Positions 7,174 through 54,173 are shown, counted from the stretch's first letter. The stretch is DNA of 64,000 nucleotides from Clostridium thermobutyricum (GCA_016842005.1 JAENYD010000001.1:102754-166753); one strand, 5' to 3'. Numbers and translations are program-made. The notes: generated from the sequence alone by a model not told the origin.

Positions 7174-8165
7174 TATGATTCACCCCCAGTACTTCCATTC
7201 AAGGGATTCCAACAGCATATCCTATGATTATTATGCATTATTCGGGATTGTGGCTCTTCTTTCTTGCACTGTTCCGTTACGTATTTGCACCGGGGTGCGA
7301 ATCTGCATCCTTTCGGCATATTAAGAGGATCCGGCAGTCCCCCTTCAATAGTGTTCAGCCTGTCACGATCTTTTTCAAGGGTTGGGATTGAATCCAGCAA
7401 TGCCTGGGTATACGGATGAGCAGGTTTCTCAAAAATGGTCTCAATATCTGCTTCCTCCATAATTTTACCCGCATACATTACGCAAACCCTGCTACACATC
7501 TGTGCTACAACCCCCATATCATGGGTGACCAGTAGTATGGAAGTATTAAACTGTCTGTTAATATCCCTTATGAGATCCAGTATTTGAGCCTGTATAGTGA
7601 CATCCAGGGCGGTGGTGGGTTCGTCTGCAATCAGCAACTGAGGATTACACGCTAATGCCATCGCTATCATTACCCTTTGACGCATACCCCCTGAAAACTG
7701 GTGCGGATAGTTATTGATGCGTTTTTCAGGCGAAGGTATATCTACTAGGTCGAGCAGTTCTATAGACTTTTTTAGTGCTTCCCTATTATTCATACCGGTA
7801 TGTATTGAAAATGCTTCTATTAGCTGGTTTCCTATGGTATACACCGGGTTTAACGAGGTCATTGGTTCCTGAAATATCATTGAAATTTGATTTCCTCTTA
7901 TTCTTCTCATCTGCTCATTGGTCTTCTTTAGCAGGTCTTCACCACGGAAAATTATTTCACCGCCCGCTATTTTCCCCGGAGGATTTGGCACCAACTGCAT
8001 TACCGATAAGGAAGTAACACTTTTACCGCTGCCGCTTTCGCCTACCAGGCCTAAAATTTCACCATTTCCAATGCTGAAACTAATACCATCGACCGCCGTA
8101 ACTCTTCCCCTTTCAGTGTTGAATACAGTTGTTAAGTTCTTAACTTCCAAAGTTATATTACTCAT
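7173..8165 (-). CDS. Oligopeptide/dipeptide ABC transporter ATP-binding protein (OppD/DppD type)
   Basis: GESGSGKS, FSGGMRQR, LLIADEPTTALD. The likely true start is MSNITLEV, preceded by RBS AGGAGTG. Its stop overlaps the downstream ATPase gene. Confidence 0.85.
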   Translation of the reverse strand: MSNITLEVKNLTTVFNTERGRVTAVDGISFSIGNGEILGLVGESGSGKSVTSLSVMQLVPNPPGKIAGGEIIFRGEDLLKKTNEQMRRIRGNQISMIFQEPMTSLNPVYTIGNQLIEAFSIHTGMNNREALKKSIELLDLVDIPSPEKRINNYPHQFSGGMRQRVMIAMALACNPQLLIADEPTTALDVTIQAQILDLIRDINRQFNTSILLVTHDMGVVAQMCSRVCVMYAGKIMEEADIETIFEKPAHPYTQALLDSIPTLEKDRDRLNTIEGGLPDPLNMPKGCRFAPRCKYVTEQCKKEEPQSRIMHNNHRICCWNPLNGSTGGES

Positions 8166-8192
8166 AATTATCACTCCTGCCTGCAACATATA

Positions 8193-9119
8193 TCAGTCTT
8201 CCGCATCAAACCGGATTCTGGGATCAAGGTATGAATATGTTAAATCGGTCAATAAATTTACAGCAACGAAGGTTATAGCTAAAATGAATACTACCGCCTG
8301 AACAACGGGATAATCCCTCTGTCCTATTGCAGTTATTACCAATCTGCCGATCCCAGGCCATTCAAAAACACTTTCTGTTACCACCGCACCCCCAAGAAGT
8401 TTCCCGAACTGCAGTCCTACCACGGTAACCAGAGGTATAAGACTATTTTTTAACGCATGCTTGAGTACTACTACCTTTTCCTTTGCTCCCTTTGCACGGG
8501 CAGTTCTCACATAATCCTCGGATAATACTTCCAGTAAACCGGATCTTGTGAGACGACTTATCATCGCAAGGTAGAATGACCCCAGTGCAACCATAGGGAG
8601 TACAAGATGCCTGAAAGTACCGCGGCCTGAAGTAGGGAATAATCCCAATTTTACAGAAAACACAATGACAAGCATTATACCCAGCCAAAATGTCGGCATA
8701 GACTGCAATCCCAAGGCTATTCCCATGGAGGTGTAGTCTGCCAGTGTATTTCTTTTAACTGCCGCAATTATCCCCATAGGAACTGCAAAAATAATAGCGA
8801 ACACCATAGCCGACACTGCAAGTTCAAGAGTTGCGGGAAGTCTTTCGATAGCAATTTGAAAGGCGGGTCTCCTGTGAACCATCGAAAGGCCAAAGTCGCA
8901 TTTTACAGCACCTTTTAAAAACCTGGCGTATTGTATATAGATAGGGTCATCGTATCCGAGGGAATGCCGGAATTCAGCAATCTGCGCATCGGTTGCATCG
9001 GGAGGCAGCAGTAATTGTGCTGGGTCTCCTGAAAGATGCATGATAAAGAATGTCACTACAGAGACCCCTAAAACTACAATAACAGCCTGTGGGAGCTTCC
9101 TTAACAAGTATTGTACCAT
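8193..9119 (-). CDS. ABC transporter permease (DppB/OppB type)
   Basis: N-terminal MVQYLLRKLPQAVIVVLGVSVVTFF... plus an EAA-like loop, typical of DppB. Confidence 0.85.
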   Translation of the reverse strand: MVQYLLRKLPQAVIVVLGVSVVTFFIMHLSGDPAQLLLPPDATDAQIAEFRHSLGYDDPIYIQYARFLKGAVKCDFGLSMVHRRPAFQIAIERLPATLELAVSAMVFAIIFAVPMGIIAAVKRNTLADYTSMGIALGLQSMPTFWLGIMLVIVFSVKLGLFPTSGRGTFRHLVLPMVALGSFYLAMISRLTRSGLLEVLSEDYVRTARAKGAKEKVVVLKHALKNSLIPLVTVVGLQFGKLLGGAVVTESVFEWPGIGRLVITAIGQRDYPVVQAVVFILAITFVAVNLLTDLTYSYLDPRIRFDAED

Positions 9120-33105: not shown

Positions 33106-33146
33106 AGAATCAAAAAACCCTTGAAAATCAAGGGTTTTATTTTTGG
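33106..33146. terminator. Bidirectional rho-independent terminator at the 3' end of the tRNA operon
   Basis: AAAAAACCCTTGAaaatCAAGGGTTTTATTTTT. Confidence 0.65.
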
Positions 33147-33220
33147 TGCGCCCTGAGGGACTCGAACCCCCGACCAACTGATTCGAAGTCAGCGACTCTA
33201 TCCAACTGAGCTAAGGGCGC
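33145..33220 (-). tRNA. tRNA-Arg (anticodon TCG)
   Basis: Reverse complement GCGCCCTTAGCTCAGTTGGATAGAGTCGCTGACTTCGAATCAGTTGGTCGGGGGTTCGAGTCCCTCAGGGCGCACCA. Cloverleaf with encoded CCA. Confidence 0.85.
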
Positions 33221-33229
33221 ATATGAACC

Positions 33230-33303
33230 TGGAGCGGATGAAGGGAATCGAACCCTCGCGACTGGCTTGGAAGGCCAGGGCTCTACCACTGAGCTACACC
33301 CGC
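33230..33303 (-). tRNA. tRNA-Gly (anticodon TCC), copy 1
   Basis: Reverse complement GCGGGTGTAGCTCAGTGGTAGAGCCCTGGCCTTCCAAGCCAGTCGCGAGGGTTCGATTCCCTTCATCCGCTCCA. Confidence 0.85.
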
Positions 33304-33323
33304 ATCATGCCTGAAGAAAATAA

Positions 33324-33401
33324 TGGTGACCCATCCGCGACTCGAACGCGGGACACCCTGATTAAAAGTCAGGTGCTCTACCGACTGAGCTAATGGGCCA
33401 C
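33324..33401 (-). tRNA. tRNA-Lys (anticodon TTT)
   Basis: Reverse complement GTGGCCCATTAGCTCAGTCGGTAGAGCACCTGACTTTTAATCAGGGTGTCCCGCGTTCGAGTCGCGGATGGGTCACCA. Confidence 0.85.
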
Positions 33402-33405
33402 AAGA

Positions 33406-33482
33406 TGGCTGGGGCGGCAGGACTCGAACCTGCGGAATGCCAGAGTCAAAGTCTGGTGCCTTACCGGCTTGGCGACGCCCCA
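33406..33482 (-). tRNA. tRNA-Gln (anticodon TTG)
   Basis: Reverse complement TGGGGCGTCGCCAAGCCGGTAAGGCACCAGACTTTGACTCTGGCATTCCGCAGGTTCGAGTCCTGCCGCCCCAGCCA. It has the U1-A72 pair and the bacterial tRNA-Gln pattern. Confidence 0.85.
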
Positions 33483-33501
33483 AAGAAAACTGATTTGTAG
33501 A

Positions 33502-33579
33502 TGGGGTGGATAGTGGGAATCGAACCCACGACCTCCAGAGCCACAATCTGGCGCTCTAACCAACTGAGCTATACCCACC
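33502..33579 (-). tRNA. tRNA-His (anticodon GTG) with encoded G-1
   Basis: Reverse complement GGTGGGTATAGCTCAGTTGGTTAGAGCGCCAGATTGTGGCTCTGGAGGTCGTGGGTTCGATTCCCACTATCCACCCCA. The extra 5' G pairs with discriminator C73. Confidence 0.85.
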
Positions 33580-33603
33580 ATATTAACATTATATTAAGAT
33601 AAA

Positions 33604-33680
33604 TGGTGCGCCTGCAGGGACTCGAACCCCGGGCACACGGATTAGAAGTCCGTTGCTCTATCCACCTGAGCTACAGGCGC
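33604..33680 (-). tRNA. tRNA-Arg (anticodon TCT)
   Basis: Reverse complement GCGCCTGTAGCTCAGGTGGATAGAGCAACGGACTTCTAATCCGTGTGCCCGGGGTTCGAGTCCCTGCAGGCGCACCA. Confidence 0.85.
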
Positions 33681-33688
33681 ATGTAACA

Positions 33689-33762
33689 TGGAGCGGGTGA
33701 AGGGAATCGAACCCTCGCGACTGGCTTGGAAGGCCAGGGCTCTACCACTGAGCTACACCCGC
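33689..33762 (-). tRNA. tRNA-Gly (anticodon TCC), copy 2 (one substitution relative to copy 1)
   Basis: Reverse complement GCGGGTGTAGCTCAGTGGTAGAGCCCTGGCCTTCCAAGCCAGTCGCGAGGGTTCGATTCCCTTCACCCGCTCCA. Confidence 0.85.
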
Positions 33763-41331: not shown

Positions 41332-41919
41332 TCATCTGCCGCAAAATACCTCTTTCCATTTCTCCACCGTCAACATCCTGTGGTCGGACACTATGGCAAT
41401 ATATTCTATATCTTCCGGTTCCACAGGATGAAAAATCATCACTTCTGCATCATAGCCCTGTTCCCGGTCTTTCCTTCGCATAAGATTATCCTTGAAGCTC
41501 AGGGAGGTTTCCCAGTATTCTTCTGCAATGCGCTTTCCTTCGTTTGCCAGAAATCCTTCTGCCTTTTGGAATTCTTCCAGGCTGCGCAGCACGAAAGGCT
41601 CATAGAGAATGTTTGCCTTATTCTCATTGGCTATCCAGCACCGCTCCGGGTCTATTCTCAATGCCAGAAGCATGCTGTGGGAATGCCAGCGATGACCGTC
41701 ATTGAAATTCATACTGGCAAAAACAGCCCTGCTCCTGTCCACCCAGCATGGTATGCGGGACGGTCTATGGGAGTTCATAAAACCGTGGAAATCCTGGTAT
41801 CGGCTTCTGTACGTGGTTTTGTTGTCATATCTGACGCCTTCCTTTTTTATCCCGGGCAAATCGTTCAGATTGACAATATGATACACAACCCCTGTCTCCG
41901 TATAATCAGGAAAAATCAT
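41332..41919 (-). CDS. Hypothetical protein, possible DUF4433 (DarT-like ADP-ribosyltransferase fold)
   Basis: Strong RBS AGGAGG. N-terminal VVYHIVNLNDLPGIKKEGV and C-terminal EVMIFHPVEPEDIEYIAIV are reminiscent of DUF4433/DarT motifs. There is no macrodomain neighbour. Confidence 0.3.
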   Translation of the reverse strand: MIFPDYTETGVVYHIVNLNDLPGIKKEGVRYDNKTTYRSRYQDFHGFMNSHRPSRIPCWVDRSRAVFASMNFNDGHRWHSHSMLLALRIDPERCWIANENKANILYEPFVLRSLEEFQKAEGFLANEGKRIAEEYWETSLSFKDNLMRRKDREQGYDAEVMIFHPVEPEDIEYIAIVSDHRMLTVEKWKEVFCGR

Positions 41920-42375: not shown

Positions 42376-43758
42376 CTAAATAATGAACATGGCAATAATT
42401 GTTGTTACTATCAGTCCTATCATAACCGGCTTGAAATTCCTGCGGGCCAGGTCAACGGGCAGCACTCTGCAGATAGCGGCCGCCGGAATCAGCCCCCAGG
42501 GCACCAGGGTGCCTCCCCCGACCCATATGGCAGCTATCTGTCCGAGAGCGGCAAGGGCCGCTATGCTGCCATTAACAGCCGTACCGAATACCTTTGCCAG
42601 GGAACCGGCCAGAGACATACCCGAGAATCCCGAGCCGTCCAGCCCGGTGATGGCACCTACCACCGTTTCCATGGTTGCCACCGCCGGCGTGTTCATTGGT
42701 ACTGCAGCCGCCATGGCCCTTCCGATATCCGACAGGATACCCTGGGAACCGGCGGGCAGTATCCCTTCTCCGAACACCGCGTCAATGGGAGATATCTCCC
42801 CCATATAGAAAAAAGCTGCGATGGGAATTATGGGCCCGAATACCTCCATGCCGAATCTGAAACCCTCTATCAAGAACCGGGTTATCTCCTCCAGGGCCTT
42901 TTTCCCGTACAGCAGAATGCACACTGCCATTAATACAAGAACTGCCGTCCCGCCTATGAGAGCCGTGGCTTCCCCTCCCCTTAAACGCAGGAAAAACATG
43001 ATTACTACGTCCAGCAGAAAGGCCAGGGGTACCAGCCATGCAGTAAATCTGCTTATCCAGGTTATCTCCGCCTCTTTTTTTTCTTCAAATTCCTCTATCA
43101 CTGTTTCCTCGATATTTCCCAGCCTCATATCCCTTTTCAGGAATATATATGCGACCACCACCGTGGTGACGCCCATTACCATTACCAGGGGAATACCTCC
43201 GGCCATCACATCCACAACCCCTATTCCCGCTGCAGTGGCGGTTATAGTGGGTGCCCCCTGTATGATATAGTCACTGGACAGGGCTATACCGTGACCGAAG
43301 AGATTTATCGCCATGGCGACACCTATTGCCGGCAGTCCCGCCCTGATACCTGCAGGCAGCAATACTGCCCCTACAAGGGCAGTGGCCGGGGAAGGCCAGA
43401 AAAACCACGATGCCAGCAGCATTATTATCCCGATAAACCAGAATGCGATATCGGGATTTTTTATCAATCTGGCGAAAGGTGATACCATAAGTACATTGGC
43501 CCCAATCTTCTCCATCATCTTTGACATGGCAACAATCAGAGATATAACCAGTATAATGCCCAGAAGCTCGTTACCTGCCACAATAAAAGAATCAAAAATT
43601 GCCCTGGTTGCCCCTGTTATGGATCCTGTGCCGGCCAAACCCAATAAAAAAATACCTGCTATGCATGGAATGACCGTATCCTTGCGCATCACCATCACAG
43701 CAAGTATTACAACAACCATTACGGCATATATCCAGTGAAGCAGTGTAAGGTGAACCAT
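42376..43758 (-). CDS. Polytopic membrane permease (ion-transporter superfamily, YfcC/DcuC/NhaC-like), family uncertain
   Basis: ~460 aa with 10-12 TM helices and an internal amphipathic loop (EETVIEEFEEKKEAE). No specific family motif recognised. Confidence 0.4.
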   Translation of the reverse strand: MVHLTLLHWIYAVMVVVILAVMVMRKDTVIPCIAGIFLLGLAGTGSITGATRAIFDSFIVAGNELLGIILVISLIVAMSKMMEKIGANVLMVSPFARLIKNPDIAFWFIGIIMLLASWFFWPSPATALVGAVLLPAGIRAGLPAIGVAMAINLFGHGIALSSDYIIQGAPTITATAAGIGVVDVMAGGIPLVMVMGVTTVVVAYIFLKRDMRLGNIEETVIEEFEEKKEAEITWISRFTAWLVPLAFLLDVVIMFFLRLRGGEATALIGGTAVLVLMAVCILLYGKKALEEITRFLIEGFRFGMEVFGPIIPIAAFFYMGEISPIDAVFGEGILPAGSQGILSDIGRAMAAAVPMNTPAVATMETVVGAITGLDGSGFSGMSLAGSLAKVFGTAVNGSIAALAALGQIAAIWVGGGTLVPWGLIPAAAICRVLPVDLARRNFKPVMIGLIVTTIIAMFII

Positions 43759-44042
43759 TTTTCCCGCTCCCTTCAAAAAATGTCCTTAATATCAGTATAC
43801 GCTCCCGTTCAAATATTGTGACATCCCATTGGCACCCCATCGGAGGCGTTCACTGAATTCCCATCGAAGACGTTCCTTAAATTTCGCTTCTGCAGTCGTT
43901 CAAAGTAAAAAAATAAACCGGCACTGGTATGAGGTACCGATTTATATTTTTTCTTGAAATTAATAAAAGCTTATTCTGCCTGCACATATAAGGGCGGGCA
44001 CTGTTTTGAATTCGAATAGAAACATTACTTATTCATCATCAA

Positions 44043-44774
44043 TTAATATCCCAGTCCTCTTACAATCTCATGATCAAGAATTTTTTTCCGTTCCTTCCAG
44101 TCTGGCATATGAACGGTTAAAAAATCATAGAATTCTTTATTATGCTTAGGATAAAGAAAGTGTGTTAACTCATGTAAGACAACATAATCAATACAGGATG
44201 GCGGAGCTTTGTACAAATAATAATTAAGATTAATTTTACTGTGCTTTCTGGAGCAGCTACCCCAAAGGGTCTTCATTTTCCTTACTTGAAGTATCGGTTT
44301 AGCAATATCATGTTTAGCAATAATGGGATATAGCTTATCAATAACCGTTAGAAAATACGACTTGCTTTGTTTTTGCCACCAACGCTCAAATTGCTTTTGC
44401 AAAGCCTGTTTATCATCAGGAACAGGAGATTGTATATTAATAAAGCCTTCTTTTTGTTCTACTTTATATATTTTAGATTCACTGACAATAATCCTCTTCT
44501 GCCTCCCTAGAATACGCGTTGATACTCCACTGTGTATTCTTGTTTCAACTTCATTAGCCTCCGCTTCTTTATAATAATTTAATGACTTTTCTATCCATGC
44601 AGTCTTGCTGTTCAGATATTCATGTATCCATGCATCTGATGCGCCAAACGGAGTAGTTAGCTTAACAGTACCATTTGGAAACACTTTAAGCCGGATTCGT
44701 TTTACATTTTTACGCTCAATAATTACTTCCACTTTATTCAATGAGCCTGTTAAAGATATCTCTATTTTATTCAT
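44043..44774 (-). CDS. YgjP-like (DUF45/WLM, SprT-like) zinc metallopeptidase-motif protein
   Basis: HELTHFLYPKHNKEF (HExxH). The family is typically linked to hsdR loci. Confidence 0.8.
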   Translation of the reverse strand: MNKIEISLTGSLNKVEVIIERKNVKRIRLKVFPNGTVKLTTPFGASDAWIHEYLNSKTAWIEKSLNYYKEAEANEVETRIHSGVSTRILGRQKRIIVSESKIYKVEQKEGFINIQSPVPDDKQALQKQFERWWQKQSKSYFLTVIDKLYPIIAKHDIAKPILQVRKMKTLWGSCSRKHSKINLNYYLYKAPPSCIDYVVLHELTHFLYPKHNKEFYDFLTVHMPDWKERKKILDHEIVRGLGY

Positions 44775-44777
44775 GGC

Positions 44778-47700
44778 CTAATACCTGCTCACCGCCGTTT
44801 TCATGAGAGCCTCCAACATAATATCTATTTCTTCTACTGTTAGACCAACATCATGTTCATCAATAAAATCCCAAATCAAATCATCAAGGGCTTGCTCCAT
44901 GTCTTTATGCACAGCTACATTATGACGCCAGTCTACTTTTGCTCGATCGGCAATGGCCTTCTTTATTTCTATGGCCAATTGTCCCATAGCTTCTTCTAAT
45001 TCCGGCGAAATATCCCTTATCGCCCTGGAAACAACATCCTGAACAGATCCATAAAAAGCTTTTGCATCACTATCGTTATCTATACAGGTCGGGTAATGAT
45101 GACCGGTATAACCCCTTTTAAAATCCTCTGCTATTCTTTCCATATTTGACAAATAGGAAGCATCGTTCCTAGACGCTTTGTATTCAGCAAGAGTTTCTCT
45201 TACTTGCTCAGAAAATTTCTTGTATAGTAACGGATCATCATAACGATATGTTTCCAATTCTCCTACCATACGGGTACGGATGGCATCCCCCTTTGCAGAT
45301 TTGCTTTCCAACATTTCCAACTGCTTCTTCATATCTTCAGTGTTGTGTATAGAAACGGGTTCCACAACGATTTGACTGGGTTCGGAGAGCACAAAATTAT
45401 TTAATAGACTTCTAATACCATCTTCATATTTACTGAAATCTACTTTCTCATAGTATCGAAGCAAAACCGCCCCTCGCAGTTTCTGAAAGTGGAGTAGATC
45501 CTTTTTGTATTCTTGAATCTGTTCATATCCTATAGAATTATACAGAGCATAGCTTCCCATAGCCAAATCCAAAAGGCGTGAGTAGATTGAAAGCTTTTCA
45601 TAAAATTTCTTTCTTATATCATCGTCCGCTAATACGCTTTGCCAACCTTCAGAATTATTTCGGTCAAACTCCTTCCCTTCGAATATTGCCCACAGTTCCT
45701 GATATGCATTTTTTAGCTTGAGCTTTTGGTCTTCTGCCCCAAGGATAGCGTTCTTAATGTCTTCCGTATCATACCCATCCATTCCGGATTTTGTATCAGA
45801 ATACATATCCATGGCAGTATTCAGTTTGCCAAAGATACCCCAATAATCCACAATAAGGCCAAAATCTTTGCCCGGGTATACCCGATTTACGCGGGCAATG
45901 GCCTGCAATAATGAATGCTCCTTCATTGGTTTGTCCACATATATCACAGCAGCAACAGGTGCATCAAAGCCGGTTAGCAGTTTATCCTTTACGATAAGCA
46001 TTTCCACATCTTCACCGCCAACAAAGCTATTCTTTGCCCAATCGTCATATTTCTCATAATTGTTCCCGAAAAGTGGTTCCACCTCTTCTTTAAAGAATGT
46101 CTTTATCTTCTCTTTACTTTCGCTGGTAAGTTCGTCCCCTTCTTTAACATCTTCGGGCGATATTACCACCGCCGTCTTAATACCGCCAAGCCTCTTTAAC
46201 GACTTATGAAGCTCAATAGCGGCGGGGCGGGATGAGGCTGCTACCATAGCCTTAAAACCCTTTGGCTTGGCATAACTGATAAAGTGTTCGTGAATATCAA
46301 AAGCTACCATATCTATACGCTGTCGTGTTTGAGCCAACGGCAAAAAACGACTCCATTTCCTCTTCATGTCCTCCTGTTCACTGGGCTTCAATGGTGCAAT
46401 GATGTATTTAAGATAATCATCAATCTTATCACTCGTCACATCTTGCGGAATTATCCTGCCTTCGTAGACAAGTGGAACAATGACACCATCTTTCACCGCC
46501 TTATCTATAGGATAACTATCAATAAGCGGACCAAACCTCGCGTAGGTATTAAACTTATCTTTCTTAAGCAAAGGAGTACCGGTGAAACCTATTTTAGTCG
46601 CATTGGGTAGTACATCAACCATAAAATTGTGAAGTTGTCCCGATTGTGTCCTATGGCTTTCATCCACTAGTAAAAAAATATTGTCATCCTTAATCCTGAC
46701 TCTGGTTTTTGCCGCTGTATCAAATTTATGCACAAGGGTAGTAATAACAATTTCTCCTTTATCCTTCAAGAGACCAATTAACCCTTTACCTGTCTTGGCT
46801 CGGCTCGGACTCATCTGTGCCTTTACGAAATTATCTCTAAGTTGCTTATCTAAATTGATACGGTCGCTGACAAGCACAAAGCGGGGATTCTTGATATCGG
46901 GATCCGATATTATTTTCTTTACCAGCATCACCATGGTAAGGGATTTACCGCTGCCCTGCGTATGCCAGATTACACCGTTTTTCGTATTCTTTCCATCTTC
47001 GCCTTTTATACGTTTCATAGCTTTCTGTATGCCAAAGAACTGCTGATAACGGGCAATTTTTTTTACATTATTATCATACAGAATGAAATAACGAATAATC
47101 TCCAGTAACCTCTCCCTAGAAAGCATTGATACAATAGTTCTATCCTGTTCAACTATTTTTCCATCAGGACTAACATTGCCGCATTTTTCTTGCTGCCATT
47201 TATAATCCTTTTCCCTCCATATACTGAAGTGCTCGAAAAGCGTTCCGCAGGTCCCATATTTAACGATATTGGGGTTCATCGCCATTACGATTTGGACGAA
47301 TTTAAAAAGATGGGGGATATAATCAGGCTGCCAGTTACGTATGTTTTGTGTTACACCTTCATCCACATTTATACCGGATTTTTTACATTCAATCACCACT
47401 ATTGGAATACCGTTTATAAGTAGCACAATATCAGGCCGTGTATATTTTCCATTAGACCTTTCAACCGAAAATTCGTCTGTAACCTGCCATATATTGTTCT
47501 CCGGATGTTCCCAATCAATGAACTTCAAGTCAAAGGACTGACGCCCTCCGTCAAACAGTTCTTCTTCATAGCTGCTGCCGGAAATTAACATATCATAAAC
47601 AGTCTTGCTTGCCGACATCAGGCCTGAGACAAGCGGTACATCAATATCATTTATTGCCTTACCTATAGAGCGGTCAGAGAAAGGGGTTTGCTTTCCTCTG

Positions 47701-47885
47701 TAAAAGAAGGACTGGCGCTGCAGAAATTCACGCAGAACGTCAGTAAAAATTACGTTTGAAAGTCGGCCACGCAGGATTTCCGCCTGTGAACGTGGAACAT
47801 ACTGATACCCTAGTTTTTCCAGCACTTTTATCGCCCTGTCCTGGCTCTCCGGACGTTCATTGAACATAGTATGGTCTGGCATCAA
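44778..47885 (-). CDS. hsdR: Type I restriction enzyme R subunit
   Basis: 1035 aa. Helicase motifs TQGSGKSLTM (I) and LLVDESHRTQSG (II). N-terminal nuclease region. Confidence 0.9.
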   Translation of the reverse strand: MMPDHTMFNERPESQDRAIKVLEKLGYQYVPRSQAEILRGRLSNVIFTDVLREFLQRQSFFYRGKQTPFSDRSIGKAINDIDVPLVSGLMSASKTVYDMLISGSSYEEELFDGGRQSFDLKFIDWEHPENNIWQVTDEFSVERSNGKYTRPDIVLLINGIPIVVIECKKSGINVDEGVTQNIRNWQPDYIPHLFKFVQIVMAMNPNIVKYGTCGTLFEHFSIWREKDYKWQQEKCGNVSPDGKIVEQDRTIVSMLSRERLLEIIRYFILYDNNVKKIARYQQFFGIQKAMKRIKGEDGKNTKNGVIWHTQGSGKSLTMVMLVKKIISDPDIKNPRFVLVSDRINLDKQLRDNFVKAQMSPSRAKTGKGLIGLLKDKGEIVITTLVHKFDTAAKTRVRIKDDNIFLLVDESHRTQSGQLHNFMVDVLPNATKIGFTGTPLLKKDKFNTYARFGPLIDSYPIDKAVKDGVIVPLVYEGRIIPQDVTSDKIDDYLKYIIAPLKPSEQEDMKRKWSRFLPLAQTRQRIDMVAFDIHEHFISYAKPKGFKAMVAASSRPAAIELHKSLKRLGGIKTAVVISPEDVKEGDELTSESKEKIKTFFKEEVEPLFGNNYEKYDDWAKNSFVGGEDVEMLIVKDKLLTGFDAPVAAVIYVDKPMKEHSLLQAIARVNRVYPGKDFGLIVDYWGIFGKLNTAMDMYSDTKSGMDGYDTEDIKNAILGAEDQKLKLKNAYQELWAIFEGKEFDRNNSEGWQSVLADDDIRKKFYEKLSIYSRLLDLAMGSYALYNSIGYEQIQEYKKDLLHFQKLRGAVLLRYYEKVDFSKYEDGIRSLLNNFVLSEPSQIVVEPVSIHNTEDMKKQLEMLESKSAKGDAIRTRMVGELETYRYDDPLLYKKFSEQVRETLAEYKASRNDASYLSNMERIAEDFKRGYTGHHYPTCIDNDSDAKAFYGSVQDVVSRAIRDISPELEEAMGQLAIEIKKAIADRAKVDWRHNVAVHKDMEQALDDLIWDFIDEHDVGLTVEEIDIMLEALMKTAVSRY

Positions 47886-49186
47886 GACACCCCCTGTTCT
47901 CTGACTCTTACTATTCCTGTTAGCAATAATTGCATCAGGGCTTTCTTCTGCCTTTTTAACTCCTCAAGCTGCTTTTCATGCAGGTTAATTTCGCGGTCTG
48001 CGGTGGAGAGGATTTCTGCAATGGCAGTTTGCTCAGATATAGTGGGCAACTTAACAGAAATTTTAGTAAGGCTAGCCCTCGATAGATTAAACCTTATTGC
48101 TCCTTGAGCCAACATGTAAAGAATCTTTCTGAAAGCTAACCCTCTAAAATAATAGCATGCAAATTCAGGTAATAAAGTATTGAAATCATTCAATCTGAAG
48201 CCCATACAAAAACTATTCAGATATACCTCATCTATATCACCAAGATAAACGGCAGACATCCCCACTTCATTCTGAGTTTCAGAAGAAGTTGTGAAAAATA
48301 TATCCCCATAACGGACTTTGTTCTGTTTTTCATTATCCAGAATATTTACAAGCTCCAACTTCCTTACATCAATTACAGGGTTTTCATAAATATTATTGTA
48401 CGGAATATAATACTTCCCATATCCGAAATCTTCTTTGCTTTTCCCGCTTAGACCAGCATAGGTATGCCCTATATCTCCTAATCTAATCTCCTTCCATTTA
48501 CCTGTAAATCCAGGAAGACGTTTTCTGCCTGTAAGCAGGTTCTGCATCAGCCATTTTTTCTGTTGCTTTTTCTCTGCAATTAGCCGCTCTTTCAATTTAA
48601 TGGCTTTGTCCCATATAGACAAAACTCCTGCAATTTTCTTCTGCTCGGATATAGGAGGCATATGAACCCAAAGATTCATAAAAGATTTTTTACTCATAAC
48701 CCTGTTCCTTCCTGCTCCGCCCGGCGATATATCTGATAACATCTTTTTAAAATATGGCTGAATCACATAATACTTATAAAAATTTGGACAGGCATTTTCC
48801 CTGAATACATAGGTTGGAAACCTATGTGATACCAATTTGCCCGCATCGTTTTTATCTGCCAGTGCTATTGCGTGTTCCCACGCGAATGTGATATTAACAA
48901 CCAGATCCTTTTCGGCAACTAAGAATAACTCCTCCATGGCAACAGTATCCGGGTCATCTATAAACTCATGGAATGTTCCCTTTGCATGACTTCTAAGCCC
49001 CAAGCGCCAGTAACCTTTCTTAGGCTTAGGCACTTTTCTTTCTACATGGTCAAGTATATAGTTTAGTTGTTTTACATCCCAATCCTTAGGGTTAATACCT
49101 GCTTTTGTTTTTTTATACCCCTCAGGCACCACACCTTTTCTTATCTGCTCTATACGTTCCCTTATCTCAGGCTTCAATTTTTTCAC
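47882..49186 (-). CDS. hsdS: Type I restriction-modification specificity subunit (two TRDs)
   Basis: Two target-recognition domains separated by, and ending with, conserved coiled-coil regions (ISEQKKIAGVLSIWDKAIKLKERLIAEKK...; ISEQTAIAEILSTADREINLHEKQLEELKRQKKALMQ). Confidence 0.85.
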   Translation of the reverse strand: MKKLKPEIRERIEQIRKGVVPEGYKKTKAGINPKDWDVKQLNYILDHVERKVPKPKKGYWRLGLRSHAKGTFHEFIDDPDTVAMEELFLVAEKDLVVNITFAWEHAIALADKNDAGKLVSHRFPTYVFRENACPNFYKYYVIQPYFKKMLSDISPGGAGRNRVMSKKSFMNLWVHMPPISEQKKIAGVLSIWDKAIKLKERLIAEKKQQKKWLMQNLLTGRKRLPGFTGKWKEIRLGDIGHTYAGLSGKSKEDFGYGKYYIPYNNIYENPVIDVRKLELVNILDNEKQNKVRYGDIFFTTSSETQNEVGMSAVYLGDIDEVYLNSFCMGFRLNDFNTLLPEFACYYFRGLAFRKILYMLAQGAIRFNLSRASLTKISVKLPTISEQTAIAEILSTADREINLHEKQLEELKRQKKALMQLLLTGIVRVREQGVS

Positions 49187-50038
49187 CTACAATTCTTTGG
49201 TTTTATTTTTACTGCTAATTCTTTTAAACTCTTTTTTTTCAAGCTGTTTTATGCTTTCATCCGGGGTAGGCAGGTCTTCAGGCATGGTTCCTCCCAGTTT
49301 TCTAATTGTATCCCGTACGGTTTTACCCACTTCATAATGAGTTTTATTTGCCTCTTCTTTTCCCTTTATTTTTTCTCTTCTCATTTTTTCATCAGTTTGA
49401 GTTGCACGGAATAGATTGGCTGCAAGTTAAGTACTGCCCATATGGTCAAGTATTTTTTGATTCTTTTTTAGTTTCTTTCTTCTATGTATTTCTTTAACCC
49501 CTAGCCCTCCATAAAGGCCCTGATAGCCCTTATTTTGGAACACCGCATACTCTTGCGGAGTTTCAATCCCTGCCATCTGTGCTGCTTCAGCCAAAGATTT
49601 ATTATGCTCACGGATTTCTCTCCGGATTGTCAGACGTTTTGTGTTTTCATCCAATTCATCGAACTCATCCTGCAATTCCTGTCGTCTTGTCTGAATGGCA
49701 AAATAGGTCTGACCAAGAGCTATAATTTTCTTCCTCGGATCCGCATTCTGCACGATTAAATAACATGCATACCGCGAAAGCTCAATATCTTCTATTCTAC
49801 GTTGAGCGCCTTTAGGCAATTTTATCATTTTCGTGACGTCACGAAAATGATCTTTTACATTGACATTACTATTTTCACATGCTTCCTTTGCTTTTTCCAA
49901 AACCTTGTGAAAATTCTCCCAGCGGGCATATTCGAGAACTGGAGCCAATTCCCTTGCCAACCAGCATTCTACTCCATATTCGTTAATATGCTTTATTTCA
50001 TCAAAGGTTTTGAAACTGTATTTTTCAATATTACTCAT
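49187..50038 (-). pseudogene. dinD: dinD/rhuM-family gene (DNA-damage-inducible protein D-like) interrupted by a single in-frame TAA
   Basis: The 203-aa ORF (…AGQTYFAIQTRRQEL…KNQKILDHMGST*) and the downstream 65-aa ORF (…ANKTHYEVGKTVRDTIRKLGGTMPEDLPTP…) are the same frame. The only break is the TAA at 49427-49429. Read-through gives ...HMGST*LAANLFRATQTDEKMRREKIKGKEEANKTHY..., colinear with E. coli DinD ...HMGSTELAANLFRATQTEEKLKRDG...ANTTHF.... Confidence 0.75.
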
Positions 50039-51627
50039 AATCCCAACTCCTCCAGATATCTTGCCATCTGTGTTTCCACTTCGGCAAGTTCCTTTTGGAT
50101 GTTTACAATATTGGATCTAACTTCTTCAATATCCACCAAAGCTTCTTCTTCAAAAGTATCGACATATCGGGGAATATTCAAATTGTACTCGTTGGATACT
50201 ATCTCTTCAGCATCCGCTACATGTGCAAACTTTGCGATATCTGTCCGATTCTCATAGGCTTTTACAATATCGTTTATATGTTTTGTTTCAAGCTTATTCT
50301 GATTCTTATCTTTTCTATATCGGAGATTGCCTTTTTCATCTTTACCTGAAGCATCTATGAAAAGCACATCATTACGATTGCGGTTTTTCTTGAAAACCAG
50401 TATACAGGCTGGAATGCTTGTACCATAAAACAGATTGGCAGGTAGCCCGATAACCGCATCCAATAGATTCTTATCGATCACGGCTTTTCTTATTCTTCCT
50501 TCAGACGCACCCCTAAACAAGACGCCGTGAGGAGCAACGGCAGCAATTCTACCGCCGCTTTTCAAGCTGGCAATCATGTGTAACAAGAACGCCCAGTCTC
50601 CTTTACTGGCCGGTGGTACTCCCCAATCAAAGCGATGATACCTGTCAAGTGATGCTTCCATCTTGAATCTTTTCCCTTTATCAGCCATTTCCCCGGATGA
50701 ATTAAAACCGGCTGCCCATTTATCCTGCGAGAATGGCATATTGGCCACTATAACGTCAAACTGCATGAGATTGCCGTCAGCGTCCAAATGCAGAGGGTTA
50801 GCAATCGTATCACCCCAAGCAATACTAGCGTCTAAAATGTCATGTATAAACATATTCATTCTTGCCATTGCCCAGGAAGAACCGTTCATTTCCTGACCGT
50901 ACAGAGCCAGTTTTTTTTCATAACCGTTGCCCTCCTCCTTTTCAATGGCTATTTTCCCGGTCCGTATTAGTAATGAACCGGATCCACAGGTGGGATCGTA
51001 TATGGTATCGCTTATTTTGGGATTTACAATACGCGCCATAAGCTCCGATACCTCTGGCGGGGTAAAGAACGAGCCTGCCTTTTTGCCTGCCTGGCTAGCA
51101 AACTCACCAATCATGTATTCATATGCATCGCCTATTGTGTCGGCAGCTACTTTACCTTCCTCCGGTTGTATGGAAGACGGACGTAAGTCAAGGGATACAA
51201 AATCCTCAAGCAATTCTCTTAGACGGGTATTTCTTTGCTTATGGTTGCCCAACATGGCTTCGCTGTTAAAATCGACACTTCTAAAGACGCCTGCAAGTTG
51301 GGATGGATTGTCATCTTCTATACCACGCAAAGCAATGTTTATGAGTTCTCCCAAATTATCTCTATACCTGTTTTCATATAACCATGAAAATGTATGTTCT
51401 TTTTTTATTACAAATGGAAGCCTGTTAATAGCTCTCTGTAACCTTATTGGGTCATTGTATTTTTTTCTTAATCCGTCAACGCTGTCCATATATTTATCGC
51501 TGAGATATTTAACAAAGAGCATTGACAAAACGTAATCCTTATAGTTAGCTGCATCAATGGTCCCCCTGAATGTATTGGCACCTCTCCAGAGTGCGGCCTC
51601 AATGTCTTTTCTCGTGGTAGCCATCAC
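50035..51627 (-). CDS. hsdM: Type I restriction-modification N6-adenine DNA methyltransferase subunit
   Basis: HsdM N-terminal domain (MMATTRKDIEAALWRGANTFRG), AdoMet motif I (DPTCGSGSLL) and motif IV (NMPF). Confidence 0.9.
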   Translation of the reverse strand: MMATTRKDIEAALWRGANTFRGTIDAANYKDYVLSMLFVKYLSDKYMDSVDGLRKKYNDPIRLQRAINRLPFVIKKEHTFSWLYENRYRDNLGELINIALRGIEDDNPSQLAGVFRSVDFNSEAMLGNHKQRNTRLRELLEDFVSLDLRPSSIQPEEGKVAADTIGDAYEYMIGEFASQAGKKAGSFFTPPEVSELMARIVNPKISDTIYDPTCGSGSLLIRTGKIAIEKEEGNGYEKKLALYGQEMNGSSWAMARMNMFIHDILDASIAWGDTIANPLHLDADGNLMQFDVIVANMPFSQDKWAAGFNSSGEMADKGKRFKMEASLDRYHRFDWGVPPASKGDWAFLLHMIASLKSGGRIAAVAPHGVLFRGASEGRIRKAVIDKNLLDAVIGLPANLFYGTSIPACILVFKKNRNRNDVLFIDASGKDEKGNLRYRKDKNQNKLETKHINDIVKAYENRTDIAKFAHVADAEEIVSNEYNLNIPRYVDTFEEEALVDIEEVRSNIVNIQKELAEVETQMARYLEELGL

Positions 51628-52226
51628 TTTCCCTCCTTATCATTTGATACTACACTGTTCATTACTGCCGCCATAAGTCGCCGGTCTTCTATAATCAGTT
51701 GATTTAATAACTGCTTTTTCTTCTTATATAGCAGCCACATCTGACCAATTATTTTCTGTTTTTTATATTCAATAATGGGAATTTCCAGTGCTTTTAATGC
51801 TTTAATTGATATTGTCTTTATTGCCGAAACTGAGCCAATAATATTACTATTTAACCAAGCCAATCCTCCATTTTCCAACAGACAGGCAATATAGGCCGGA
51901 TAATAGCCTTTTAGCGCACGGATAATAAAAAGATTGCTTGAAAAGGTAGTGTATGGCATTTCTATAGTTATTAATGTTGCAGTATCCGGGTTTAACCGTT
52001 TCAACAGAATATCATTTTTCCGAATAAAATAACTTTCATCAATAACAGCCTGCCTTGCTATTTTAGTAAGGCCTTGTATTTCATTGAAATCTCCTAGATT
52101 ATTCGGCTGAATGATGCTATATGTTGTTGTTCCTTTATTATATTGTAGCACTGATTGTCTAGTATCAGATACACCATTCAATACATCGGCAATATCGCCT
52201 AATTTAACTTTATTTAATAATGCCAT
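51624..52226 (-). CDS. Half-size type I specificity subunit (single TRD plus conserved C-terminal helix)
   Basis: ~200 aa: one TRD followed by a conserved coiled region (IEYKKQKIIGQMWLLYKKKKQLLNQLIIEDRRL). Its stop overlaps the hsdM start. Confidence 0.65.
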   Translation of the reverse strand: MALLNKVKLGDIADVLNGVSDTRQSVLQYNKGTTTYSIIQPNNLGDFNEIQGLTKIARQAVIDESYFIRKNDILLKRLNPDTATLITIEMPYTTFSSNLFIIRALKGYYPAYIACLLENGGLAWLNSNIIGSVSAIKTISIKALKALEIPIIEYKKQKIIGQMWLLYKKKKQLLNQLIIEDRRLMAAVMNSVVSNDKEGK

Positions 52227-52337
52227 TTCATCACTCCTTTTCAACAACCGTTACAGGAGAACAAATTCATAAATATAGTTTAAATACTTGAAAGTCAAAG
52301 CCATCTATCTTATATGATGATGGTTTTGGCTTCGATT

Positions 52338-52535
52338 AAGCTAACCTCTTGGCGGAAACGGGCGTTACCATAGCTATCTTTTTGTCTTATCCTTCCGTCC
52401 TCTCTATGGATAACAAGTTCAGAGCCTTGATTTCTCGCTATTTCCTGCGCAATGTCAATTACTTCTTTTTGTGTATCGGTACGAATAGTAGCTTTTTCGT
52501 TTCCTCCCCTTTAACCGCCAACCGCCATCGGGATC
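52338..52535 (-). pseudogene. DUF2188-family small-protein remnant with several frameshifts and an in-frame stop
   Basis: Three - strand frames carry consecutive pieces of the DUF2188 consensus: KLYHDPDGGW / RLAVKGEE / NEKATIRTDTQKEVIDIAQEIARNQGSELVIHREDGRIRQKDSYGN, then APFPPRG after another 1-nt slip. Confidence 0.5.
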
Positions 52536-52918
52536 ATGGTATAATTTGCATATCAAAAATTCATTGACACCCCATTTCTCACAAAAGTCTTTGACGAACC
52601 TAGTGGAATTATATCACAATAATCCCATTAGTCAATATGTATTTTTTTATGTTAAGCTTTAACATATATAATATTGGTTATTTTTTGTTGCCTTAACGTA
52701 TACTTTCCGCTTAAGTTATCACATCACATATGAAAAATAGAAACCGCTGGCCTTATGGATCAAATGCCCACTAACATAAGTCCACAGATAATATGATTTA
52801 GCTATGAACGGGAAAAAAGAACATCTCTTCTGCCCGTTTTTAGAATATTTCCATTGACATATGTGTACATATAATATATAGTGTGTATATACTATATATG
52901 CAATGAAGGGAGAACAGC

Positions 52919-53299
52919 ATGTTCATCACTATTTCTCCGAACAATCCGGACCCGCTGTACAAGCAGATAAAAGACCAGATTAAAACCGCCATAATGGCGG
53001 GCGAAGTAAAACCTGGAGATACGCTGCCTTCCATCCGGGGTCTGGCAAAAGAACTGAAGACCAGTGTCATAACCATAAAAAGGGCATATACCGACCTGGA
53101 ACAGGAAGGATTTATAACAACGCGGCAGGGCATGGGTTCTTTTGTCACTGACATAAGCCGGGAGAGGCTCAGACTTGAAAAGCTAGGCGAAATCCGCAAA
53201 AAGCTGGCGCATCTCACCGAAGATGCCGCCCGCTTCGATATTTCCGCCGGCGATATTATCCGCATACTTAAAGAATTGGAGGGAAGATTTGATGGATAA
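52919..53299 (+). CDS. GntR-family regulator, YtrA subfamily (short C-terminus)
   Basis: wHTH (TLPSIRGLAKELKTSVITIKRAYTDLEQEGFI) with a ~50-aa C-terminal tail. It is the first gene of an ABC-exporter operon. Confidence 0.8.
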   Translation: MFITISPNNPDPLYKQIKDQIKTAIMAGEVKPGDTLPSIRGLAKELKTSVITIKRAYTDLEQEGFITTRQGMGSFVTDISRERLRLEKLGEIRKKLAHLTEDAARFDISAGDIIRILKELEGRFDG

Positions 53300-54173
53300 C
53301 ATACTGGAGGTTGTGAACCTTCGCAAGGAATACAGGGAATTCACATTGAAGGATATATCATTTTCACTGCCCAGGGGATACATCATGGGCCTTATAGGTC
53401 CCAACGGTGCGGGAAAAACCACCACAATAAAGCTGATTATGAACATTATAAACCCCGACGGCGGTAAGGTAAGTGTTTTCGGCCGGTCTTACAGGGACAG
53501 CGAAGAAGAAATAAAGAATAGAATTGGTTATGTGGGTGAAACACAGTATTTCTTCGAAGATATGACAGTGGACTGGACCGAAAGATTTATCTCAGCGTAT
53601 TATGAAAAATGGGACCCGGGGATGTTTGACAGCCTGATCAAACGTTTCGGGGTTAGCAGGACCAAAAAGACCAAAGAGCTTTCAAAGGGGATGAAGGTAA
53701 AACTATCCCTTGCCCTCGCCCTTGCCCATCACCCGCAGCTGCTCATCCTTGACGAACCCACATCGGGTCTTGACCCGGTTGTGCGGAGAGAAATACTGGA
53801 TATGCTCCTGGACCTGATACAGGATGACGGGAAATCGGTGCTGATGTCTTCCCATATAACCGAAGATATTGAGAAGATTGCCGACTATGTCACATATATT
53901 GTTGACGGGAATATAACCCTTACGGATGAAAAGGAGAATATACTGTCCAGCTGGAAAAAAATTCACATCAAGGGAGAGCTGGCGACCCCCTGGATAAAAT
54001 CAAAGCTAAAGGCCGTGCAGGAGAACATCTTCGGCATATCGGGCATGACCGACGATTACAGGGCGATACTGGAGCATACAGGCGGTTCAAAGGGCAGCAG
54101 CGGTATAAGGGTGGAAAACGCAACCCTTGACGATATACTCATATCCTTTGTAAAGGGGGGAAAACAATGCTGA
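53292..54173 (+). CDS. ABC transporter ATP-binding protein (ABC-2/bacitracin-type exporter ATPase)
   Basis: Walker A GPNGAGKTT, signature LSKGMKVK, Walker B LLILDEPTSGLD. Start at ATG 53292 overlaps the GntR stop. Confidence 0.85.
   Translation: MDNILEVVNLRKEYREFTLKDISFSLPRGYIMGLIGPNGAGKTTTIKLIMNIINPDGGKVSVFGRSYRDSEEEIKNRIGYVGETQYFFEDMTVDWTERFISAYYEKWDPGMFDSLIKRFGVSRTKKTKELSKGMKVKLSLALALAHHPQLLILDEPTSGLDPVVRREILDMLLDLIQDDGKSVLMSSHITEDIEKIADYVTYIVDGNITLTDEKENILSSWKKIHIKGELATPWIKSKLKAVQENIFGISGMTDDYRAILEHTGGSKGSSGIRVENATLDDILISFVKGGKQC

Follow-up and report, generated by a model that had tools for sequence, protein, structure and literature searches.

The 64,000-nucleotide stretch of the Clostridium thermobutyricum genome analysed here (GCA_016842005.1 JAENYD010000001.1:102754-166753; hereafter the window, with positions counted from its first letter) contains a type I restriction-modification (R-M) island in which a DinD-family gene stands between hsdM and hsdS and carries one nonsense codon, as the original prediction had it. 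Our results indicate that this island is probably a horizontally acquired R-M operon with two specificity (S) genes, the optional DinD passenger of which has been cut by a single stop. By analogy with relatives of the same layout, HsdM and HsdS_long, the S subunit with two target-recognition domains (TRDs), would methylate one asymmetric bipartite site, while HsdS_short, a half-size S protein (half-S), would act as an auxiliary subunit for efficient and specific methylation rather than as a second specificity, as experiments on distant relatives suggest; HsdR would be expected to add ATP-driven restriction. The slot between hsdM and hsdS holds a DinD-family gene as an optional accessory (PADLOC candidate PDC-S13), and the nonsense codon, which falls at the invariant Glu204, would cut the C-terminal helical module of DinD in half. 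The core R-M system is predicted to have been left working, because its core motifs are intact and because hsdS_long has a Shine-Dalgarno (SD) sequence and a start codon of its own. Six open reading frames (ORFs) were recovered on the minus strand in the order that had been proposed, namely half-S, hsdM, dinD, hsdS, hsdR and a ygjP-like gene, with the following coordinates:

51624-52247, minus strand: half-S ORF (hsdS_short), with one TRD and one coiled-coil helix; probable start ATG 52226 (SD AAGGAG), giving 51624-52226.
50035-51627, minus strand: hsdM, N6-methyladenine (m6A) methyltransferase subunit; Pfam and NCBIfam matches, motifs DPTCGSG and NMPF.
49187-50038, minus strand: dinD as a whole, matching the DinD model NF008573; interrupted by a TAA.
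49427-50038, minus strand: N-terminal part of dinD (203 codons, Bro-N), ending in the premature TAA at 49427-49429.
49187-49426, minus strand: C-terminal part of dinD (79 codons, in frame, conserved); downstream of the stop, ATG 49384 is the first start codon in this frame.
47882-49186, minus strand: hsdS_long ORF, with two TRDs; probable start TTG 49177 (SD TAGGTG), giving 47882-49177.
44778-47885, minus strand: hsdR, restriction and translocase subunit; TIGR00348, motif II DESH.
44043-44774, minus strand: ygjP-like gene; PF01863, HELTH; named 'M48 family metallopeptidase' by PGAP.

Translation of 49184-50038 on the minus strand shows one in-frame TAA at 49427-49429, with both flanking parts in the same frame (...ILDHMGST*LAANLFRATQTDEK...), so that the dinD reading frame is interrupted at codon 204. 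The model NF008573 matches residues 4-206 before the stop (317.9 bits; cut-off 242) and residues 208-279 after it (95.3 bits); jointly the two parts reach about 413 bits, are collinear, and leave exactly one model position missing. That the interrupted position is normally Glu was borne out, as this residue is invariant first in 14 and then in 28 homologues, but the simple GAA to TAA step that had been proposed was not, since the three closest relatives for which DNA is available carry GAG at codon 204 and a GAA intermediate can only be inferred. The sequence past the stop has kept the conservation claimed for it, being 85-91% identical to the closest relatives, and the proportion of nonsynonymous differences (pN) there is 0.065-0.081, not higher than in the N-terminal part. 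Because synonymous sites are saturated against all available relatives, only a recent event fits either way, and the alternative originally posed, a very recent inactivation or a sequencing error, is upheld. In an AlphaFold model of an intact homologue (predicted local distance difference test score, pLDDT, 61), the stop would lie at the start of helix 202-221 and would remove three helices. Recoding or read-through of the stop was considered and rejected, as 23 of the 57 long ORFs terminate with TAA and no suppressor tRNA is encoded in the window.

We regard the TAA as most likely a recent and real loss-of-function mutation rather than an error. The change is a substitution in non-repetitive sequence outside any homopolymer, the long neighbouring genes are uninterrupted, the coding fraction of the window is normal (0.866), and loss of dinD by other routes recurs in related operons. 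Real decay is further favored because another accessory gene in the island, that for a DUF2188 protein (see below), is also disrupted. A base-call or assembly error, with dinD intact in the organism, would explain why the allele occurs in a single assembly, why the sequence past the stop shows no relaxation, and why it departs from the norm, as a single full-length match without interruption was obtained at 83 of the 88 other dinD loci. However, such an error would have to be a substitution away from any homopolymer, in a stretch whose long neighbours are clean and whose coding density is normal, and to have arisen in an island with another broken gene and in a kind of operon where dinD loss is documented; we therefore consider it unlikely.

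It could also be imagined that dinD is a working split gene, which produces a 203-aa Bro-N protein and a 65-aa C-terminal protein re-initiated at ATG 49384, 14 codons past the stop. In line with this, the C-terminal part remains constrained, codon 218 is ATG only in the window, with Ile or Leu in 14 homologues, and Arcobacter and Aliarcobacter plasmids hold a free-standing 99-aa ORF of the DinD C-terminal module beside hsdS. Yet no SD sequence precedes ATG 49384, Ile to Met is a common conservative substitution, and a product starting at residue 218 would be without the invariant LAANLFRATQT segment, which the Arcobacter ORF partly keeps. Many database 'proteins' of 80-110 aa that begin with MGSTELAANLF, retrieved in a search of 1.84 billion representatives with the C-terminal piece, were likewise judged to be gene-calling artefacts on short contigs rather than free-standing modules. 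Taken together, these points make a working split gene highly improbable, and a real, recent inactivation of dinD remains our preferred explanation.

The second feature of note is the half-S. It had been seen as a spare gene that might supply alternative specificity, but it is instead conserved and positionally fixed in 23 other loci across phyla. For this comparison we fetched 80 dinD loci, one genome per species (labels such as L001 denote these and related loci). Type I genes related to those of the window occur in 34 of the 80, and 30 have a full-length hsdM; in 23 a same-strand half-HsdS ORF of 180-226 aa ends at the hsdM start. These 23 loci belong to Bacillota, Spirochaetota, Fibrobacterota, Pseudomonadota, Bacteroidota-related groups and a Methanosarcinales archaeon, and all their half-S ORFs fall in one similarity cluster with that of the window. 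The half-S/hsdM pair is also found on Arcobacter, Acetobacter, Acinetobacter and Bacillus plasmids, and the closest relatives (L001, L089, L090 and L091) have the same six-gene order of half-S, hsdM, dinD, hsdS, hsdR and ygjP. The half-S protein itself has no Pfam match, whereas it matches NCBIfam (E 7e-6) and PADLOC Specificity_I models (E 1e-10), its family profile matches solved HsdS chains and Esub1, a half-S homodimer, and 19 of the 24 members of the family match PF01420. Its database relatives are uniformly about 190-234 aa long, and the form found in the protein collection is the 200-aa one that starts at ATG 52226.

The role that we propose for HsdS_short is best illustrated by two systems with the same S gene layout for which methylomes have been published. 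In the 'hsdRSMS' system of Staphylococcus xylosus both S proteins are expressed, and the full S_short-M-S_long block methylates one asymmetric bipartite motif, TCAN6CTC or ACAYN5GGT, while without hsdS_short methylation is weak and degenerate and no palindromic motif appears (PMC10030836). Likewise, BlihIA of Bacillus licheniformis DSM13, with the same two S genes, has one motif, RTAC(N)5GCT (PMC12429846). A single bipartite motif, the observation named at the outset as speaking against alternative specificity, is thus what these methylomes show, though in distant relatives and not in this genome. The S. xylosus hsdS_short aligns end to end with our half-S profile (hhalign probability 96.9%, E 1.4e-10).

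Another way to account for the half-S is that it forms a homodimeric specificity subunit of its own with HsdM, which would give a second, symmetric specificity of methylation and restriction. Half-size HsdS proteins can indeed dimerise into a body like a full S subunit: Esub1 crystallises as a homodimer that mimics one (PMC11754733), and results on truncated type IC HsdS, cited in PMC10030836, bear on the same half-size dimerisation. The half-S family is also as variable as the TRD-bearing HsdS. Nevertheless, both same-layout systems with methylomes show one asymmetric motif only, removal of hsdS_short weakens that same motif and removes no second one, and the half-S is fixed next to hsdM, and translationally coupled with it, in 23 loci, which suits a stoichiometric partner. 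We consequently judge a homodimer to be decidedly unlikely and prefer an auxiliary role. Phase variation or a shufflon was rejected, in agreement with the original prediction, as no repeat of at least 14 nt is common to half-S and hsdS, the two proteins resemble each other only marginally, and 41-56 kb contains no recombinase ORF.

The assignments of HsdM, HsdS, HsdR and the YgjP-like protein were upheld, the first three by Pfam and NCBIfam and the last by Pfam. HsdM matches PF02384 (E 2.6e-103), PF12161 and TIGR00497 (302.7 bits; cut-off 242.75) and carries the S-adenosylmethionine and catalytic motifs DPTCGSG and NMPF, the latter being a clade variant common to L001, L022, L023 and L026. HsdS_long matches PF01420 in two stretches and the PADLOC Specificity_I model with E 7.7e-88. 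HsdR, of about 1035 aa, matches PF04313, PF18766, PF22679 and TIGR00348 (502.7 bits), in keeping with a nuclease N-domain and SF2 motor domains, and has an intact DESH motif, and its sole solved relatives are the EcoR124 HsdR chains. The YgjP-like protein matches PF01863 (E 1.1e-51) and has its HExxH metal site in the form HELTH, but it matches no NCBIfam model. A ygjP homologue 3' of hsdR occurs also in related loci of the dinD comparison, in L081, L089 and L091, and on an E. coli plasmid, and a literature search on YgjP or COG1451 with R-M systems returned nothing relevant.

Not every gene of the operon is coupled to the next by a 4-nt overlap, as had been stated; only three of the five junctions overlap (half-S/hsdM, hsdM/dinD and hsdS/hsdR), by 4 nt each, or by 1 nt if translation begins at the adjacent ATG. 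The stop of dinD abuts the first possible start of hsdS, or lies 9 nt away from it if the SD-preceded TTG at 49177 is used, and hsdR and ygjP are separated by 3 nt. The SD sequence TAGGTG of hsdS_long overlaps the dinD stop, and L001 and L090 have kept the same SD-TTG arrangement. We had considered that the premature stop might act on hsdS through strong polarity, but gave this less weight once the conserved start had been found.

Our results further show that dinD is optional, being gained, lost and exchanged among lineages. In the neighbourhood analysis, HsdM lies immediately upstream of dinD in 23 of 69 loci, and immediately downstream lie HsdS (14 of 71 loci) or an integrase or resolvase (about 11 of 71). 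The gene is intact (281 aa) in L089, L090 and L091. In Desulfoscipio sp. XC116 (L081, 12182-12220, and L082), the same half-S-hsdM-hsdS-hsdR-ygjP operon retains only a 7-codon dinD stub (MSDIQKY...), a deletion scar; nucleotide homology of the Desulfoscipio sequence to its relatives ends 21 nt into dinD. In L013, dinD has four stops and stands beside a remnant of hsdM. In the Arcobacter and Aliarcobacter plasmids L087 and L093, RhuM takes the place of dinD in the same slot, and a 99-aa ORF, unlisted in the PLSDB gene tables, overlaps both the RhuM stop and the hsdS start (L087:10468-10767 and L093:6468-6760). This ORF consists of the DinD C-terminal module alone and is 57-60% identical to the window from residue 203, which suggests that the module is separable and tied to hsdS. 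Comparison of its two copies was uninformative, as their divergence is too low and includes one indel.

The passenger gene had also been labelled rhuM, and RhuM and DinD had been treated as one family. Both are indeed recurrent in the hsdM-hsdS slot, and CDSs (coding sequences) of DinD or RhuM between hsd genes are listed in PMC9881135, but by the tests that we ran they are not one family: the product has no match to PF13310 even at E<=10, and hhalign gives a probability of 0.1% for the DinD profile against the Arcobacter RhuM. The two share a genomic niche without detectable common ancestry. The dinD product has a Bro-N domain followed by a helical C-terminal module. The intact homologue P0002, 84% identical, matches the PADLOC PDC-S13 model end to end (E 1.6e-122); a literature search on PDC-S13 returned nothing relevant, and no experimental test was found. 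DinD is also matched over model positions 2-270 by the 717-aa PADLOC Specificity_I model PDLC03083, and in the active system Btr190I hsdS is fused to dinD (PMC4996451). From these sequences we infer that DinD may work with, or on, the HsdS side of the complex.

Two further occurrences of dinD deserve mention. In Fibrobacter (L083:13183-19596 and L085:13360-20474), the dinD-hsdS and hsdS-hsdR slots hold variable cargo, including a DEAD helicase with a phosphoribosyltransferase domain, a DprA-like protein, KAP NTPase or DUF3800, DUF1016 and AAA_15/DUF4435; with this cargo the type I operon encloses what is in effect a defence island. In E. coli O6:H16 M9682-C1 (L092:6986-7810 and 8152-8976), two dinD genes stand in tandem; a P4-family primase element has inserted next to the native dinD-yicG locus, and the extra copy lies at its edge.

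In the operon of the window, dinD has no promoter region of its own, its start overlapping hsdM, and a search of 43000-53500 for LexA boxes of the Cheo (Firmicutes) type, the only type searched, found none. Because no such box is present, 'damage-inducible' is here only a family name. The E. coli DinD inhibits RecA filaments.

Several points weigh against the overall interpretation given above. The interrupted allele is found in one assembly only (P0021 is a singleton, and exact look-ups of the 203-aa fragment returned no further assembly). The two-S systems with experimental support are distant (HsdM 39% and HsdR 28% identical), and in S. xylosus hsdR lies upstream. Across the family, mean pairwise identity is 27% for half-S and 31% for HsdS_long, compared with 58% for HsdM and 44.5% for HsdR; a half-S as variable as HsdS_long is as expected of a specificity-determining TRD and may point to a role in DNA recognition. 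By contrast, hsdS_short was reported to be 'highly conserved' within staphylococci (PMC10030836), unlike the half-S here. Finally, the fold lead for the function of DinD is DdrC only, and it is not significant: with the model of P0002, the top Foldseek matches in the PDB are all DdrC, with E 0.02-0.2 and template modeling (TM) scores of 0.3-0.43, and the AlphaFold model is weak overall (pLDDT 61), although region 130-270 is helical and reasonable. DdrC is a Deinococcus DNA-damage response protein that binds DNA breaks.

An independent finding concerns the dinD gene itself, which contains the following element:

49824-49851, no strand assigned: perfect 28-nt palindrome, ATCATTTTCGTGAC followed by GTCACGAAAATGAT, found by repeat scan; dinD codons 63-72 (DHFRDVTKMI).

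The palindrome is predicted to fold, as RNA, into a 12-bp stem with a 4-nt loop, at about -15 kcal/mol. It persists in 72 distinct dinD homologues while its sequence changes, with at least 11 compensatory codon pairs. Codons 66 and 69 are reverse complements of each other as CGT/ACG, GCT/AGC, GCC/GGC, GCG/CGC, GTT/AAC, GAG/CTC, TCC/GGA, GTG/CAC, CAC/GTG, GGT/ACC and CCT/AGG; TTT is matched by AAA (Phe/Lys) and TTC by GAA (Phe/Glu), and GAT accompanies ATC (Asp...Ile) where GAC accompanies GTC (Asp...Val). The third base of an Ala codon predicts whether its partner is Ser, Gly or Arg; therefore, the constraint is on the nucleic acid and not on the protein. Compared with shuffles, in which none of 500 reached the observed values, 89.8% of cells are paired (77.3% in shuffles), 122 cells show double changes (32), and the covariation score is 0.363 (0.125). 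When the partner is slid by 1-3 columns, pairing is at most 51%, against the 89.8% observed. The stem has 10.94 Watson-Crick pairs out of 12, compared with 7.58 after synonymous-codon resampling, with 69 of 69 sequences above this null (p = 5e-13), and conservation does not extend to the two innermost pairs of the palindrome, in keeping with a 12-bp stem and a loop of 4 nt.

Copies of the palindrome were sought with a covariance model and a direct scan over 1.5 Mb of sequence. Nearly every dinD gene has it at this position, even a paralogue whose protein is only 38% identical (L051, 14543-14570), and the 1.5 Mb gave no significant covariance-model match (E<0.01) that was not close to dinD. Extra copies occur directly after the hsdM stop (L085:12186-12213 and L086:10040-10067), directly after the dinD stop (L019:4094-4121, L083:13125-13152 and L084), and, as two or three tandem copies, upstream of dinD in L058 (80-107 and 123-150). 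These extragenic copies represent about three independent settings, and all have the core TTTTCGTGAnGnCACGAAAA, as does the intragenic copy of the window. In E. coli and other enterobacteria the dinD palindrome has decayed to 20 of 28 positions. Mismatches in the stem (G.T 16, A.C 30) separate neither RNA from DNA nor one strand from the other. An Rfam search of the palindrome gave chance matches only and no family, and the one literature search aimed at dinD with a palindrome or hairpin returned nothing relevant.

We tentatively suggest, at somewhat short of an even chance, that dinD genes carry a previously undescribed, functional cis-acting hairpin, in RNA or single-stranded DNA (ssDNA), which could be an autoregulatory site for DinD as a nucleic-acid-binding protein, or a recombination site by which the dinD cassette enters and leaves the hsdM-hsdS slot. 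On this suggestion the base of the stem, CCAUUUU/AAAAUGG, would be fixed, with an upper part that is free but always complementary, and base pairing alone would constrain two amino-acid positions of DinD. As mRNA or ssDNA the hairpin might be bound by DinD itself; it might also act in processing or stability, or serve recombination of the dinD cassette. Combined with the separable C-terminal module beside, or fused to, HsdS, such a hairpin could perhaps turn DinD into an accessory that plugs into type I R-M systems and brings a control element with it, which we offer as a tentative proposal.

Alternatively, the palindrome could be functionless, that is, a self-perpetuating quasi-palindrome in which intrastrand template switching copies changes from one arm to the other across two tolerant codons. 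Template-switch 'correction' of quasi-palindromes yields compensatory changes, and those observed are what it would be expected to produce; G.T and A.C mismatches both occur (16 and 30), with no clear RNA signature, and in enterobacterial dinD decay of the palindrome has left 20 of 28 positions. However, this would leave unexplained why the palindrome is kept across phyla, even in the 38%-identical paralogue, why synonymous codon choice is bent to pairing in 69 of 69 sequences, and why separate copies lie just outside dinD in 7 loci while no significant match lies away from it in 1.5 Mb. We hold a functionless palindrome to be less likely than not, but a serious rival to a functional hairpin. 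An internal start at Met71, concealed by the hairpin, was considered and rejected, as this residue is Thr or Ile throughout one clade and the short PADLOC variant fails to align at this point.

As to its surroundings, region 43777-52918 has a GC content of 0.391, against 0.460 in the rest of the window, and related operons occur in unrelated chromosomal contexts, often beside defence genes (Fic, RloB/AAA_21 and HNH). The region at 43.8-52.9 kb is, judged by its composition and these contexts, a low-GC and probably horizontally acquired operon. It is flanked by a membrane protein gene on one side and by a GntR regulator and an ABC transporter on the other, and no integrase, tRNA or flanking repeat was found at its ends. 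Upstream of the half-S lie two further features:

52608-52635, minus strand: best sigma-70-like promoter candidate (TTGACT-16-TATAAT, extended -10 TG), matching 11 of 12 consensus positions and at the top of the scan.
52341-52556, minus strand: frameshifted remnant of a DUF2188 gene (PF09954, E 7.5e-17, model positions 15-62), between the promoter candidate and half-S.

The region holds 32 promoter-like sites, not above the 28.5 in shuffles, and the site at 52608-52635 is a candidate only. In the DUF2188 remnant, the N-terminal 'DGGWRLKG' and the C-terminal 'PFPPRG*' are in a different frame from the piece that matches PF09954; the gene is frameshifted at least once, near a G4 run, and probably again ahead of PFPPRG. 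Outside the island, about 2 kb from it, a 195-aa ORF (41332-41919, minus strand) has a weak match to DarT (PF14487, E 0.0017, 18.6 bits, below the cut-off of 22.5), DarT being an ssDNA ADP-ribosyltransferase. A cluster of seven tRNA genes (Arg, Gly, Lys, Gln, His, Arg and Gly) at 33144-33762 on the minus strand does not adjoin the island, being 10 kb away.

The operon is in itself ordinary, being one more case of a type I R-M layout that is widespread, here with a single accessory gene broken, and its interest lies in what the comparison with its relatives reveals. The half-S layout, first described as a staphylococcal novelty and then in one Bacillus, is now phylogenetically broad, with 23 further loci and the plasmids, and that the half-S evolves as fast as a TRD across this range sharpens the question of its function. 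Natural dinD alleles form a series, from intact through nonsense and stub to replacement by RhuM with the C-terminal module kept; together with the DinD-HsdS fusions, this series makes the role of DinD in R-M directly testable. If functional, the dinD hairpin would be a rare and clean case in which nucleic-acid pairing dictates amino-acid identity in a coding gene, and it may be a new regulatory or recombination element.

Among known systems, EcoR124I/II (type IC; 7BST and 2W00) provides the nearest solved HsdR and one of the nearest solved HsdM proteins, and it likewise has adjacent hsdM and hsdS genes and an HsdR of about 1035 aa. However, it has a single HsdS and neither a half-S, a passenger nor a YgjP-like gene, and the similarity is modest (215 bits for HsdM and 130 bits for HsdR). 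The E. coli DinD (NF008573/PRK11525) is a full-length collinear match that shares the Bro-N N-terminus and the invariant C-terminal motifs, but its gene is a stand-alone SOS gene beside yicG, whereas dinD in the window is promoterless, overlaps hsdM, has no Cheo/LexA box and is interrupted. RhuM passengers occupy the same hsdM-hsdS slot in the same type of operon, as on the Arcobacter plasmids, without detectable homology to DinD. PrrC, in the type IC locus EcoprrI, offers a precedent for an accessory gene among hsd genes, as a second-line effector held by the R-M complex; it is an anticodon nuclease that occupies a different slot and has no sequence relation to DinD. PADLOC lists PDC-S13, which DinD matches, as a candidate defence system defined by genomic association.

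In Btr190I of Bibersteinia trehalosi (PMC4996451) and in PDLC03083, DinD stands directly 5' of hsdS, as in the window. In Btr190I the two are fused, while in the window dinD is interrupted and lies 0-9 nt from an hsdS gene separate from it; such fusions nonetheless argue for a physical link between DinD and HsdS. The S. xylosus hsdRSMS system (PMC10030836) and BlihIA (PMC12429846) resemble the window in having a single-TRD hsdS_short of about 190-200 aa upstream of hsdM and a two-TRD hsdS_long downstream, with no repeats between the S genes and no invertase, and are, like it, related to type IC. They differ from the window, which has a DinD gene between hsdM and hsdS_long; in S. xylosus, hsdR lies upstream of hsdS_short, while in the window it follows hsdS_long and is itself followed by the YgjP-like gene, and HsdM and HsdR are 39% and 28% identical, respectively, between the two. 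By its S_short-M-S_long layout, the operon of the window is of the same architectural kind as the S. xylosus hsdRSMS system, and represents a distant subfamily of it.

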